A DNA stretch of 64,000 nt from Hydrolagus colliei. Taxonomy: Eukaryota. Under the pieces are notes generated by a model. That model had not been told where the DNA came from and made no database searches. It was given only the letters and a program-made list of their open reading frames with translations. Both the position numbers and the translations under genes were made by a program. The stretch is from assembly GCA_035084275.1 (NCBI GenBank), contig CM068750.1:7130001-7194000 (forward strand). The letters run 5' to 3'. Below are positions 43,411 through 50,723 of this stretch, piece by piece (the stretch's first letter is position 1; every line of letters starts with the position of its first letter).

Positions 43411-44297
43411 TCAGTGGCATCCGCATCCCTCTACCACCATCTCCTGATAGTTTTTCAACACAACTTTGTCGTATTCGTCCAAGTAGAGCATTGAGATAGG
43501 GCTGAGTTCTGTGGGGACGCAGCAAGCCTTGGGGATGTTGGAGTTTACAGAGTTTACAAGAGTCTGCACGATGGCGTGGTTGGTTGAATTCAGGTGATCT
43601 GCCAGTGGGAATGGGCAGTCGCCGTGACAGTAAAAGGCTTGGTAGCCAGGCGGTGCCACTATCCAGTCGTTCCAGCCCACATCGCTGAAATCCACATAGA
43701 GCGAGTGCCTCCTGCAGTGCGATTTGTTCTTCTTGCGTCTCAGGCCTTTGCCGCTGCGTTTCACCCTCCGGGTGAGAGCGTGTCCCTTGCCATCGTGGCT
43801 GAAAGTTACAAGCAAAGGCCTGAGCTGCGACCAATCGCCTCCAACAGCACCTCCTCCTCCTCCTCCTCCCTCACCCCTCCTCCCTCCGGCTCTCTGGTGC
43901 AGCGATCTGCTAATCCTAACGTGCGAGCCTTGCTGGCTTCTCGTCTCGTTCAGGTGAATCACTTCGACCGCCAGCCCGTGGTTAGGCTGTTTGTGCACCG
44001 TCCATCTCAACACGGCCGGGCTCACGTCAAAGCTTTCCCACTGTGTCCTGTTCTGATGGACCAACCTGGTATCCAACAGCCTGGTGATGAGGTCGCCCTG
44101 TTTGCTGGGGGCCCTCATGATCTCATAGACGTTGATGCGGTGGAAACCTTCATCCCAGTTCAACAGGCTGTCGATCCGCTCCCGGTAAACTCTCAGCTCG
44201 GCAGAAGAAAGCACTTCGTTCTCGGGAACCGCGCTGATATTAAACACAAAACGAAACGTGAAGTCTTGCCTCCAGCCTGGCACCAACTCCAAGTGGT
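43411..44297 (-). CDS. BMP4: Bone morphogenetic protein 4, last coding exon (C-terminal prodomain, furin sites, mature TGF-beta domain)
   Basis: Acceptor ...tgttgcgaaacag|AC; RISR (43917-43906) and RRVKR (43770-43756) cleavage sites; 114-aa mature domain with 7 Cys ([38 protein letters not shown]...ACCVPTEL...[23 protein letters not shown]); TGA at 43413-43411. YQAF, EYDK and YQEM favour BMP4 over BMP2. Confidence 0.97.
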
Positions 44298-45251
44298 CTG
44301 TTTCGCAACAGAAATGAGAGACAACCCTTAAAACAACTGATTCATCAAGTGTATGTGAGGTGGAGAGGGGTGGGGGGGGTGGGGAGAGAGGCAAACACAC
44401 ACACACATACACACAAACATGTACTGTATACCCATTCATACACACACACAGGACCCGAGTAAATACCCTTTAATTAAAAGATATGATACAACTAGACTAA
44501 ACCGAGGCCAAACAAAAGGTGACGCCCGCCTCTAAACTTATTACACCAAAAAACTAGTGTTTTTGACTCAAAAATGTCGAATCGACCACTTAATAACGCA
44601 AAACCAGTTTCACACAAGAGCTAAACACACAGCAGGAAAAATAACCTTGGCTCGTTTCTTCGAAGTACTTTTGTCACCTGCCACAACTGCCCACCCCCCA
44701 CCCCAGCCCCTCACCCACAACCCCAACTGAGACTCGACTATTAATTGAAATCTGCAATCCTCTCCAGGTTACAGAAAGTCTAAATGCGCCAGCCACTCGA
44801 GCACATTGCACTCACCCAACAATACTCCACTAAAATAATATATATATTTTTTTAAAAAACACGTCTATCTCCCAATACCTGTGCCTGGATTCCTGAACAT
44901 TCAACATTCAAATGACCTGATCTGTCTGGGACTGTAAATACACAACTGTAAATACCCATTTCCCCCCCCCCCCCCCCCCTTCTAAAAACAAAACATTCAG
45001 AAAGTCCCTTCTGTATATACAGTGTACTCCATTATTTGTACCCCCCCCACCCCCCAACTTAGCCCAGTCCACTCCCCACTATTGGGGAGAGTATCATTAT
45101 CATCATCAACAACAACAACAACCATAAGATTGGTAAGTGAATGGCTCGAAAAAGACAACACAAACGAGTCATCAAAGTGAGAATCTCAACACTCGCTGCT
45201 ATATATACATTATATACACACACATACACATAATATACACACACATAACAT

Positions 45252-45399
45252 NNNNNNNNNNNNNNNNNNNNNNNNNNNNNNNNNNNNNNNNNNNNNNNNN
45301 NNNNNNNNNNNNNNNNNNNNNNNNNNNNNNNNNNNNNNNNNNNNNNNNNNNNNNNNNNNNNNNNNNNNNNNNNNNNNNNNNNNNNNNNNNNNNNNNNNN
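45252..45399. other. Assembly gap (148 N) inside the BMP4 coding intron
   Basis: Run of N flanked by (CA/TA)-rich low-complexity sequence. Confidence 1.
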
Positions 45400-45441
45400 A
45401 CACACATCGCCAGGGCAAAATAAGAAAGAGAAGCCCCTGCC

Positions 45442-45472
<31 letters not shown>

Positions 45473-45503
45473 CCCCACCTCCCAAGTGAAGTGTGTTTAG
45501 TAC

Positions 45504-45855
45504 CTTCGTGATGGAAACCCCTCACGGTGTTGGCCCGACTCGCCGATATCTCGGGATAATCGAAGTTGATGTCGTGGGTGATCTCGTCCCCAGACTGAAG
45601 CCTGTACAGATCCAGCATATACTGGGGAATGACGGCAGATTTGCTGGGCTGTGGGCGTCGTTGCAATCCGAACATGTTAAGTAAAGTGGCCTCGAATTCC
45701 CGTAGCAGTTCATGGTTTTGCGGAGAGCGACGTCCACCCGCCTGGTTTTGCTCAGCGAACTTCTTCCTTCCTTCCTCGGGTATTAGACTAGCATTACCTC
45801 CCAGTAAGACTTGGCATAATAAAATTACCATCAGCATTCGGTTACCAGGAATCAT
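45504..45855 (-). CDS. BMP4: BMP4 first coding exon (signal peptide and N-terminal prodomain); exon begins at 45862
   Basis: [20 protein letters not shown]...[41 protein letters not shown]...[13 protein letters not shown]; acceptor ccgtag|AGACACCATG, donor GAAG|gtact. 352 nt + 887 nt = 413 codons in frame. Confidence 0.97.
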
Positions 45856-46789
45856 GGTGTCTCTACGGAGCGCAAAACACACACACACACACAACACACA
45901 CACACACACAAAAAAAAAGGAGCGAGAATTAGAGTAATCTTCAATCAACGCCCCAGAGAGAGCGAGGGAGAGAAAGAGAGAGAAAGAGAAAGAGAGTAAG
46001 CAAGAAAGAGAGCGAGAGAGAGAGAGAGTGAGTGAGAGGGAGAGAGAGCGCTACACAGAGCAAAGAAAAGAAGAGTGAAAGAGGTATAATTACTTGGTCT
46101 GACTCGGTTACAGTTAAATAGCCCCATAATCAGTCAGATAGCACCATCATGTTACTCTTTGTGTTCCTGGGATCTCAGTAATTACCTCAGGCTGATTTTT
46201 CTTTCAGAAGTAAACAGTATAAAAATATTTGCAATGAATTTCTCCCCCTCTTGGCTCAATCGTGTTATTTTTTTTGAGGGGGTTGGTGAAGAGGGTGAAG
46301 AGTGTTTATACATTGCTCTACAAAACTACTGTCTAAACCCCGTTTAATTTCTTCTTCCCCACCTCCCCACCTCTCACCCTTCCCCCGTGGGCTCCTTTTT
46401 GATAAGACTTGTCCGTAGCGTGTGGCTGGAAACACTTTGCTTCTTGACAGCCAAGGTACAACAACAACAACAACAACAAAACACAGACCCGAGGAAGCCA
46501 CTCCACATTCAACAGGGTTTCAATGATAAAAACCATGTCGGAAAAAAGAAGGATCGCGAGTTGGAACTCTCGCTGGGAAAGAGACTGTCCAGCGCATCTT
46601 CTACACATCGCTATCTCTCTCTCTCTCTCTGTCTTTCTCTCTTTTTTTTCTTTTTAAAAAAAATCCTGCTCCAACAATTCAAAAAAAAACCAGGAACAGA
46701 AAAAAAAATGAAATTCTCCCTCCCCCAACTTATTTAGGAAGAAAGGGGCTACTCACTGACAGAAAACAAGGCAGGTGAAAACAGTCCAT
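45842..46789 (-). CDS. Spliced overlapping uORF2, 17 aa [17 protein letters not shown] (46789-46757 joined to 45862-45842)
   Basis: ATG in AUCAUGG context; runs through the main ATG out of frame and stops at TAA 45844-45842. Translation itself is inferred. Confidence 0.6.
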
Positions 46790-46882
46790 GATTCTTGACA
46801 GCCCGTACTTGGGGACAAATTCTTGAAAAGCTCAGGGACTCTGGAGCTGTGGTCGGCTCGGCTGCTTATTATCGGATCCCTC
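46757..46882 (-). other. BMP4: BMP4 5' UTR exon (126 nt)
   Basis: Acceptor ttcttccag|GAG, donor CTGTCA|gtgagt. Its 3' part ggctgtcaagaatcatggactgtt..tgccttgttttctgtca matches my memory of the human BMP4 UTR exon. Confidence 0.85.
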
Positions 46883-46974
46883 CTGGAAGAACATTTGAAT
46901 ATAATGAGCTGAGAGACTCTTCTTTCTGCGCTTTCCTTTTTCACTTCAGTCCGCAACGTCAGCGGGCCCGCCTT

Positions 46975-47215
46975 TCACACCGGTCAATCATTGCTTCCCC
47001 TTCCCCGAGCGCCCGCCTTGTCTGAAATGTCCCACCAAAAGTGCAGCGGTGCAATTGGCGGCCCCCGGGCCGCCTTGTCAATCAGCCCGGCAAGCCTCAC
47101 CTCCCCGCTGTCAATCAAACGATTAAGACCCCGCCCTCTCTCCTCGACACGCCCACCGTGGGAGGAGGGGCCTGGCGTGTGGCCCCGCCCTCCGCCTGTC
47201 CATCAATGCGAGGCA
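46975..47215. promoter_or_regulatory. GC/CpG-rich proximal regulatory block (GC boxes, CCAAT, four TGAT[T/G]GAC motifs)
   Basis: ccccgccc at 47129 and 47183, ATTGG at 47054, and gtcaatca/gtccatca at 46983, 47077, 47110 and 47198. Confidence 0.65.
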
Positions 47216-47405
47216 TTGAGCCCAAGGACTCGGGGCTGATGCTGGAATAACTCATACACGCACAACACACACACACAAAAGTTCACCACCGCTCCTTACT
47301 TCACACTGCACACAGAGGCTTGGGAATCCAGCAGCATTCATTGTAGAACTGCCTACATTAGGAACCCAGGCATTTATTCACTCACTCACTCAATCACTCA
47401 CTCAC

Positions 47406-47565
47406 TTCCACTCAGACGAGTCCACCAAGAGCAAAAGTCTCCTCGCCTTCTTCCTTCATCTTACAGATGCACCAGAGGTTTTCTTATCTCCATCCCCCAC
47501 CCTCCACCCCCCAAACTCCCACCTCTCTCCCTCTCTCTCTTTCTCTTCCTCTCTCCTCGTCTCAC
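47406..47565 (-). other. Possible alternative first exon (purine-rich) with a TATA-like element at 47597-47591
   Basis: TTATATAG about 30 nt upstream, GA-rich body, and a GGAA|gtgagt donor at 47405. The donor lies in a (GTGA)n repeat, so it may be chance. Confidence 0.25.
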
Positions 47566-47942
47566 TACATCCATCACAGGGTCACACAGACTATATAACA
47601 CGACACACCTTCAAACCACCACACGCACAAGCAGAATTGTGATACCAGCGGCGCACACTTGGATTTTGTCCACCTCAGCCAACACTCAACGCCAGGTTCA
47701 CATTTAGCAACAACATCTTAAAAAATATATTTTTCAAGGGAAAAATACTACAGTTTCTCTCATAGCTTTGGTAAACAGACACACACACTTTTTTTTTAAA
47801 TGGTGTTTTCTCAGTACTTTTTTAATCTCCGTCGCGAGTTTGCAAACTGCAGGCTATTCGCCCGCAAACTCTTCCAATCGCGCAGAGTGTGTAAAGGTTG
47901 TAGCATCACATAACTAGACCTGTCACAATCCATATTTTGACC

Positions 47943-47973
<31 letters not shown>

Positions 47974-48379
47974 AAAATACATGCCACAATGCTGTTGGAA
48001 GGGATGGATACACACCAAAGCCCAGCGTGGCAGAAGCATTTGTACAATTATCTAAACACACTCAACAGTGCAAATGTACAAACATTTTATTTAGTCGAAT
48101 GCATTCGGATATGACTTTAGAAATCAGCGCATTTTCACTTGCAGGTAAAATGCGTTAAAACGACACAATGGATGATTAACATACCCCATTCTCACCTTTA
48201 TAGTTATGCAAGGAATTGAATTGTTAGTTAATGGGCTAACGTGTACTTTATAAATTTCGGATTCCAAACTGTCTCCTGATTATATATATATGTGTATATA
48301 TATCTCCATTTCTATCTAAGTCCGTGACACTACTGACACAGAATGGGAAACTAACTAAAAACTATTATTTTTAGTCTCT

Positions 48380-49200
48380 GTGCATAGTATCCGCGGTACA
48401 ATACACTGCCCTCGAGTCTTCCGATAAAATATATAGGGATAGGAGCTGGACTGCGCAGAAACACAGCAGCCGTTTTTACGAACAGCCCTCACACACACAC
48501 ACACACACAAAGATGCGCTTAAAATGAAATAAGTTCCCAGCACACCAGACAAAGCACCGCCTTGAATATCGTCCTTTTGCAGCACACGGGGGTCATGCTG
48601 GAGCAGTAAGAATCAGACGTGCGGCCAAAATAACACATGCATTCATTTACACTACAGAGAAGCCACAGTATACACTGTACGCAACGATCTCACTGTTTGC
48701 AAACGCACGGTGACAAAACACAGGGTCCGAACAGAAAGTTAGCGACGGACTTACCATACTGCAGTGCCGAGGATTTATCGCATGTTTCCCTGTAATCGTG
48801 TCTAATTAGTTTGCACGATCGCCTCAGTTCGCCATCCTACTTGCTCTCGCTCTCTCTCTCTCTGTTAAAGAGTCTATCGCCTTGAAACGCACAGGAGCTG
48901 CACGGGTGGCGCCTGGTGCACAAGAGCAAGCGCGCACAGAAATGCTCCGAAAAGGTCCATTTTAAGAAACATCGCCGAGGATCAATGGGAACCAACCCAA
49001 CCTGGTCTGCGGGCCGCCCAGTCCCATGCAATTTGTTGGGAAGGACGCACGTCACTGGCATTTTAACACGAGTTCATAAAGCCTCGACTCTCTGATCTCT
49101 ATAATATTTCACTTCCTTCCCGCTGAAGTGGGTGATAGTTAAGACATGTGCGCAGCAGTGGTCCTGCAAGTTGCCGGCGACTCGTGGTGTTACATACAGT
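48380..49200. promoter_or_regulatory. CpG-rich region, candidate distal BMP4 promoter
   Basis: Visibly high CpG density against CpG-poor flanks; TGGCGCC (Smad1/5-type GC element) at 48907-48913; CACGTCA at about 49048. Confidence 0.5.
48755..48870 (-). other. BMP4: Probable BMP4 upstream non-coding exon 1 (5' boundary unknown)
   Basis: Consensus donor CTGCAGTATG|gtaagt at 48754 in CpG-rich DNA; ends in ATG, as I recall human exon 1 does (...ACCTATG|). Confidence 0.6.
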
Positions 49201-50723
49201 GTTTATACAAATATATATATTTATATATAAACACGTAAGTATTAAAGGACGACTGAACCCCCCCCCCCCCCCACCCCCCACCACCTCCTCTCTTCTTCTC
49301 CTCCTCTCTACAAGTTGTCTCATATGGTTTACATCACATGGGCTGGGAAGGACATTATTCCTTTACTGTGGGAGGGCAAACATAATTCCACATCAATTAG
49401 GTTGGGTTCCTTTGCAGCAACCAAACTGTTTCGTGGGGCAAAATAGAGTAAAGTTAAGCTTAAAACAAACAGGAGTGGCAGAGTATATATGTGTGTATAT
49501 ATATATATACACACACACAGACAATTACATATCAGGAATGGAACGAGAATGTCGAAAGGATGGATGTGAAATTGAATGGACATGAAAAGTGCATGAGACC
49601 CTGGTTTGTACCCAAAAAAACACTGAATAACAGGGCACCAGGTCTCGACTGGACATGACATGACACGGGGTGAAAGTTTACATCCAATGCTAATCTGTAC
49701 TCTTCCATCTCAAACACTGGGGGCATCTTCCAATCTGTACTGTACATTATGGCCCTCCAAATGAATTTGCAAAAATATTAATGTTACGAACAGTTTGAAG
49801 TCCGGCATTAAGTTTTCTTAAAACTCTTGTGCTATTTGAACTATTGTGTTCACAAACACAGCTATAAGCAAACAAGCTGCAGTTATTCGGTGGCTACCTG
49901 TACCTGTTTTCAGGATGGGGGCATTGAATAAGTAGTCCACTGGCATCTTTCTTTAAACCCTGGAAAAGCAGAGTACAGTGCATAGCTTACTTGTTCTGCC
50001 AGGTCCACTAAGAAACCGTTAAGACTCTGGGTTTTTTTAAAATAAAAAAAAGTTTCAAAGTTTAAAAAGTAGCTTCAGAGTTATAGTGCATCAGTTACAA
50101 AGATATTACTGTAATTGGAAGCAGAAATTGTTTCAGTTTGACACCAAAATGCACAGTATATCTACTGTATAACACAATATAGAATAGTTATTTGGGCAGA
50201 TCTAAACCTCAGTCGTTCAAGGAAGGGCCAAGGAAACTCTTTGTATCATATAACTCGGATCAAATGGTTTCAATTATGTTAAATGGTCCTATGGTTAGTC
50301 AGTGTGCTTGTAATTTTATCCAATAAGTAGGTCACATTTATACATATTCATTCTTTGTTCTTATCAGTGGATGAATGATCTCCTATCAACAAGGGTGTAA
50401 GTTCAGTTTCAAAACTTCGTGTATGGGTGGGCGTGGGAGAGGGCTTGGGGTAAGTAGCCTAATTAAATTGCGGGTAAAATAATACAAATACTGTAGATCA
50501 TAGTTTATTTACTAAACAAATAATATACTGAATTGGCAGAAGTTTGTGAATCTGTCACTTGCTCCCTCCCCCCCCCTCCCCCCAGTCAGGGAGTGGTGGG
50601 CAATGCAGATGACTTGAAAGAAAGAGAAATTAGGCAAAAATAGATTAAAAACAGCTGCTGCCACCCACAGAACCAGACCCAGCGCAAGCAACCAGCTTCA
50701 AGAGAAGATAATTATAAAAATAT

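Follow-up and report, generated by a model that had tools for sequence, protein, structure and literature searches.

A junction-built upstream ORF in the BMP4 leader of Hydrolagus colliei as a candidate constitutive damper

The leaders of ATF4 and GCN4 carry a non-overlapping upstream open reading frame (uORF) followed by an out-of-frame uORF that extends over the main start (PMC5972666), and the BMP4 leader has the same layout. ATF4 combines a uORF1 of 3 codons with an overlapping uORF2, and permissive uORFs in mammals usually have fewer than 30 codons, according to the sections of PMC5972666 drawn on here. The BMP4 leader differs in its 17-codon uORF1, its 42-nt spacer and its 40 nt between uORF2 and the main ATG, and orthologue data show no induction of ATF4 size. 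Re-initiation has been described as best at 80–90 nt and as declining beyond 13–18 codons, but the same source also found it to be efficient at a distance of 42 nt following 58 codons (PMC6614817).

In human, both BMP4 uORFs, c14riboseqorf38 (uORF) and c14riboseqorf37 (overlapping uORF), are among the 7,264 GENCODE Ribo-seq ORFs listed in supplement file 2 of PMC10032668; their rows give neither a function nor conservation to fishes. Leader choice alters uORF content and main-ORF output in MYCN exon 1b and other alternative-leader cases, as it would here. Unlike in MYCN exon 1b, the BMP4 uATG lies at the exon end, and a 4-nt donor shift forms a second switch. Such shifts between tandem donors (A5E delta-4) are the commonest short donor shift; about 94% of 171 cases lie in coding regions, where they usually create premature stops, and half of 14 tested events were confirmed (PMC2423196). 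BMP4, which is absent from the main text of that paper, likewise has two GT donors 4 nt apart, but its shift lies within the 5' leader, where it brings an overlapping uORF into frame.

A search by titles and abstract openings found no study devoted to BMP4 uORFs or the 4-nt donor, although it left the older BMP4 promoter literature mostly outside, and no BMP4 uORF rows were found in the searched supplements of PMC11473369 (11 of 14 files) and PMC4568590 (9 of 16 files). Since signalling genes often have uORF pairs and the catalogue already contains both human ORFs, the present analysis is a modest extension of what is known, the additions being conservation to fish and a donor that re-frames uORF2. 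BMP4 acts as a morphogen whose dose matters; the retention of its leader from chimaera to human therefore points to a translational control that has gone unexamined, and variants in the 5' UTR are worth testing.

Architecture of the leader

The window, i.e. the whole stretch of 64,000 nucleotides that was analysed (assembly GCA_035084275.1, contig CM068750.1, positions 7,130,001 to 7,194,000), carries BMP4 on its minus strand. In protein comparisons, the product of the second coding exon reached 94% identity with BMP4 from Callorhinchus, 86% with BMP4 from sharks and rays and 61–64% with BMP2 entries; its pro- and mature domains are nearer to BMP4 than to BMP2. The pro-domain contains a glycine-rich insertion derived from a GGA repeat (43900–43840, minus strand), and the Callorhinchus entry exceeds those of sharks and rays by about 16 residues in total. 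A single paralogue match to the first coding exon was obtained (49% identity, contig C3, 94875477–94875704), around which nothing matched BMP4 exon 1 or exon 2 except GA repeats.

The features of the leader, all on the minus strand, are as follows:

48757–48755: last three bases of putative exon 1, forming the uORF1 start codon, with A at −3 and, once spliced, G at +4
48749–48754: putative exon 1 donor GTAAGT (sequence motif)
46883–48754: predicted intron 1, 1872 nt, whose acceptor TTCCAG ends at 46883
46757–46882: non-coding exon 2, 126 nt, as in read-through gene models of many vertebrates
46832–46882: uORF1 codons 2–17 and TGA (46834–46832), 51 nt, the same length as in human
46790–46831: spacer from the uORF1 stop to the uORF2 ATG, 42 nt (39–42 nt in other vertebrates)
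46757–46789: exon-2 part of uORF2, 33 nt, ATG at 46789, with A at −3 and G at +4
46751–46760: tandem exon-2 donors 4 nt apart, proximal GTCAGT (46760) and distal GTGAGT (46756)
45842–45862: exon-3 part of uORF2, overlapping the BMP4 start by 14 nt
45855–45853: BMP4 main start ATG
43411–45855: BMP4 coding region in two coding exons (protein comparison)

The original prediction that an ATG at the end of exon 1 is spliced into a 17-codon uORF1 proved exact when the junctions were joined in silico, and uORF1 is confirmed as a reading frame across the predicted 48755/46882 splice. Exon 2 supplies the G at +4, and an in-frame stop blocks any 5' extension. The human counterpart of intron 1 spans about 3.1 kb by catalogue coordinates. 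With the distal donor (junction 46757/45862), uORF2 likewise comprises 17 codons. The uORF1 stop lies 82 nt from the main ATG, from which uORF2 is 40 nt away, and 75 nt upstream of the exon-2/exon-3 junction. Exon 2 folded no better than shuffled sequences (z 0.48), and the seven Rfam matches all scored far under the gathering score.

The 48754 donor is the sole G/GTRAGT motif on the minus strand from exon 2 as far as position 80183 in the extended region, where 84 kb contain 4 of these motifs, and lies within a CpG-rich stretch, which speaks against a chance motif. Runs from another organism, taken as RNA by guess (4 of 11), matched 46740–49250 with nothing but short chance pieces, bridged no splice junction and left exon 1 uncovered, and so speak neither for nor against use of the donor. 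The region contains these further minus-strand elements:

48600–49230: CpG-rich stretch with TATA-like motifs at 49225 and 49207, candidate exon-1 promoter (sequence motifs)
48824–48835: 3-codon uORF in strong context, included if transcription starts upstream
48775–48783: 2-codon uORF
46883–47250: candidate internal promoter or 5' extension of exon 2 (motifs and a Callorhinchus model)

Five more uATGs occur in the exon-1 region, up to 49077, and the number present in the mRNA depends on the transcription start site. The uORF at 48835, 162 nt before uORF2, resembles the 3-codon ATF4 uORF1 more than the 17-codon uORF1 does. The original prediction had omitted the uATGs at 48835 and 48783, the five others and an ATG in intron 1 (46894–46892, minus strand). 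The latter, in weak context in the acceptor region, is in the uORF1 frame and would give 20 codons with the same stop. Judged from the DNA, the exon-1 uATGs and this in-frame ATG indicate that the leader is more complex than a plain pair of uORFs.

An internal promoter is plausible because one Callorhinchus model maps 47018–46883 into exon 2 without a splice and the interval 46883–47250 holds GC boxes (47190, 47136), a CCAAT motif (47058) and a CRE-like motif (46961). The class of exon-1-less transcripts proposed earlier is thus plausible, but their expected loss of uORF1 does not follow: as the 46894 ATG shares the uORF1 stop, promoter choice would weaken uORF1 rather than delete it. A 5'-extended exon 2 would also include a 10-codon ORF starting with the ATG at 46991.

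Conservation and selection

In the catalogue, c14riboseqorf38 consists of 129 nt of exon 1, the last codon of which is Met, and 51 nt of exon 2, and c14riboseqorf37 is a 17-codon overlapping ORF of 33 and 21 nt (PMC10032668); the intervening spacer, computed from the catalogue coordinates, measures 41 nt. Human and H. colliei therefore share the junction Met, the 51 nt in exon 2, a spacer of 41–42 nt and the 17-codon overlapping ORF with its 33- and 21-nt parts. They differ in that the catalogue starts the human ORF at an ATG lying 42 codons before the junction Met, giving 59 codons in total, an extension that the in-frame stop blocks in H. colliei. The human uORF1 peptide given in the original prediction is correct in its residues, but the catalogued ORF begins 42 codons further upstream. 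The longer exon-1 frame, with Met at its end, also occurs in a hamster model.

In Callorhinchus, two models read exon 2 in different frames, and their intersection left 8 of 121 bases ambiguous. In this reconstruction, the third frame is open, the stop is forced at the same codon and the spacer is 40 nt; compatibility with the window amounted to 43/51 nt in uORF1 and 33/33 nt in uORF2. The spacer was 39–42 nt in 16 read-through models matching an anchor pattern, five rows of which form one cluster; the pattern itself includes the Glu under the stop, which is therefore not evidence. Teleost models did not fit this pattern, and the stop position could not be fixed in them. Homologue searches with the read-through N-termini returned 2 and 5 proteins. 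In metagenome DNA, the exon-2 pattern had no matches, and a protein-based scan gave four loci, none of which extended to exon 2. As a separate observation, in five models from placental mammals exon 2 is spliced to an acceptor that lies within exon 3, so that they skip the usual BMP4 start and miss the first part of the signal peptide.

Compared with eight mammalian models, uORF1 showed minimum differences of 6–11/17 at codon position 2 and 3–5/17 at position 3, a substitution pattern that appears to be unlike coding selection and indeed the reverse of it; Callorhinchus alone had one difference at position 2 and four at position 3. The start, stop and spacing of the uORFs appear conserved from cartilaginous fish to human. 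The proposal that selection acts on the position of uORF1 and not on its peptide is borne out at this level, since stop and spacer are kept in Callorhinchus and human while the peptide has diverged.

The residue at the exon-2 junction, an indirect readout of the upstream exon, was scored in 22 predicted proteins (Trp 8, Arg 7, Gln 1, Met 1, unplaceable 5). Trp at this point requires an upstream exon ending in TG. It was found in Callorhinchus, catshark, Xenopus (if two extra codons are allowed) and five otophysan fishes, and the preceding residue permits a third-position A in 8/8 models. The Callorhinchus first exon with the Trp junction was not located in 37 kb upstream (best 22/32) and scored 15 against the end of exon 1 in the window, where the background mean was 12.6. 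As it could not be placed, it may be a different exon.

These data bear on the view that uORF1 is a passenger whose ATG and TGA are kept because the donor and the exon-2 sequence are constrained, only uORF2 and its splice switch being of consequence. The lower conservation of the uORF1 part (43/51) relative to uORF2 (33/33), the different ORF length in mammals, the teleost stop that could not be placed and a toy model (see below) that permits a net effect near 1 are all consistent with it. However, the usual exon-end consensus before the donor G is AG, and AT is kept at this site in both H. colliei and human. A passenger origin is also hard to reconcile with Trp (TG/G) in 8 of the 22 models, always after a residue allowing a third-position A, and with the indels in the uORF1 part of a ray and of Xenopus, which are multiples of three. 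On balance we consider this view rather unlikely, but the most credible of the alternatives.

Proposed translational role of uORF1

The reading that we favour, by a narrow degree of confidence, is that the junction-built uORF1, with start, stop and spacing conserved to human, serves as a constitutive damper that re-initiation can bypass, and not as an ATF4-type switch. Directly observed are the ORFs with their contexts and distances, the conservation of these features and the catalogue entries that list both human orthologues as translated. Owing to its strong context, uORF1 would capture most scanning ribosomes, a minority of which would then resume scanning. With uORF2 at a distance of only 42 nt and the main ATG at 82 nt, some of the re-scanning subunits could cross uORF2 before reloading and initiate at BMP4 in unstressed cells as well. 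A drop in ternary complex would then alter BMP4 output little, and output would be low and roughly steady. With the proximal exon-2 donor, uORF2 would cease to be an overlapping repressor and would act as an in-frame start, and splice choice would thus alter output more than stress.

At 17 codons, uORF1 is under the 30-codon limit for mammals and within the range of 13–18 codons where re-initiation declines. In mammals, uORF1 may exceed the length that allows re-initiation, given the human catalogue form of 59 codons and the longer frame in hamster. The 42-nt spacer falls short of the 80–90 nt at which reloading is best, a shortfall tempered by the efficient 42-nt case (PMC6614817). That same case would weaken the basal bypass and thus counts against a damper.

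In a one-parameter toy model, for which parameters were assumed and ATF4 distances were taken as background, basal bypass of uORF2 was 10–28%, and a drop in ternary complex changed output 0.5–2.3x for BMP4, with induction capped near 1–2.3x, vs 1.4–20x for ATF4-like spacing. The net effect of uORF1 was 0.46–4.4x, its sign depending on the leak and re-initiation rates.

In arsenite-treated cells, the translation efficiency (TE) of BMP4 fell to 0.49 (Z 2.67, under the authors' cut-off of 4), compared with a median fall of 5.4-fold and an ATF4 value of 1.3 (Z 8.16), which corresponds to a relative resistance of BMP4 of 2.6x (PMC4383229). With tunicamycin, the TE ratio was 1.62 (0.99–2.65) for BMP4 vs 6.3 for ATF4, and with tunicamycin plus ISRIB it was 1.31 (0.85–2.02) and 0.88, respectively, as normalised on nine control genes hand-picked from the first part of the table; BMP4 is absent from that study's list of changed or induced genes (PMC4341466). 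In mouse ES cells carrying eIF2-alpha S51A, Bmp4 was unaffected in LIF (log2 TE 0.003, padj 0.999) where Atf4 changed (log2 TE −0.95, padj 0.029), and neither Atf4 nor Bmp4 was significant in 2i (Bmp4 1.20, padj 0.96; PMC10962698). Across the three sets, which are mammalian, have low BMP4 counts and leave the leader isoform undefined, the resistance of BMP4 was 1.6x, 2.6x and none, and that of ATF4 about 2–7x. An induction of ATF4 size was not seen in these orthologue data, which leave open mild resistance at most.

An ATF4-type mechanism would have eIF2-alpha phosphorylation allow ribosomes coming from uORF1 or from the uORF at 48835 to skip uORF2, thereby inducing BMP4. The order of a non-overlapping and an overlapping uORF, the 3-codon uORF in strong context upstream (48835) and the relative resistance of 2.6x in arsenite and 1.6x in tunicamycin would suit it. 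Set against these are the mere 40 nt between uORF2 and the main ATG, the lack of significance in both human sets, the absence of BMP4 from the tunicamycin-induced list, the lack of effect of S51A in LIF and its non-significance in 2i. In addition, the TE ratio was still 1.3 (0.85–2.02) with ISRIB, so that reversal is not clear. The ATF4 analogy thus largely fails, because the spacer reaches only half the optimum for re-initiation and BMP4 stayed under the induction threshold in three data sets. The response of BMP4 translation to stress that the original prediction had drawn from this analogy was not upheld in the mammalian orthologues, where 0/3 eIF2-alpha sets call BMP4 induced or resistant, and such a mechanism now seems improbable. 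Two of the three sets nevertheless lean towards mild resistance, which speaks against a damper.

The uORF might instead set mRNA stability, its termination exposing exon-1 transcripts to nonsense-mediated decay. By the 50–55 nt rule, a stop 75 nt before the exon-2/3 junction would qualify, but short 5'-proximal uORFs and re-initiation often escape decay, and we give decay as the main role only a slim chance. In one case re-initiation stabilised a transcript (PMC6614817). A functional micropeptide, for which 7/17 residues shared by eye with the last 17 of the human peptide could be cited, is highly improbable in view of substitutions without third-position enrichment, a mammalian PhyloCSF score of −719 for c14riboseqorf38 (−16 for c14riboseqorf37, both tagged 'conserved') and a catalogue row that names no MS study (PMC10032668).

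Tandem donors of exon 2

With the distal donor (46756), uORF2 is out of frame and overlaps the BMP4 start by 14 nt, as in an ATF4-type leader; with the proximal donor (46760), this overlap is lost and the uORF2 ATG is in frame with BMP4, adding 12 amino acids. The match to U1, by a crude score, was 5.5 for the proximal and 6.5 for the distal donor. The in-frame N-terminus occurred in 14 of 425 listed proteins (Callorhinchus 2, shark 5, frog 4, bird 2, possum 1) but in no teleost or placental entry among those listed, and distal-junction read-through occurred in 18 others, so that the annotated models of relatives imply use of both donors; the set holds predicted models, at most 15 members for each of 28 clusters plus search matches, and is no census.

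The 4-nt donor shift may be splicing noise. It is possible, if doubtful, that since the split of cartilaginous and bony fish BMP4 dose has been set by promoter choice, which turns uORF1 on or off, together with a regulated 4-nt donor shift; this reading includes the flip of uORF2 from a repressor to an in-frame start, which would yield an isoform of high output that carries 12 extra residues ahead of the signal peptide. The re-framing tandem donor is the part likeliest to surprise.

The end of exon 2 was also met in a 69-letter contig (depth 32.5) from another organism, taken as RNA by guess, which contains the last 39 nt of the exon (46757–46795) with 0 differences and repeats them in tandem or cyclic order. 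It may have arisen by template switching, from a circle or through a duplication in that organism. In the spliced mRNA, the 39-nt unit is flanked by a 9-nt direct repeat (46801–46793 and the exon-2/3 junction).
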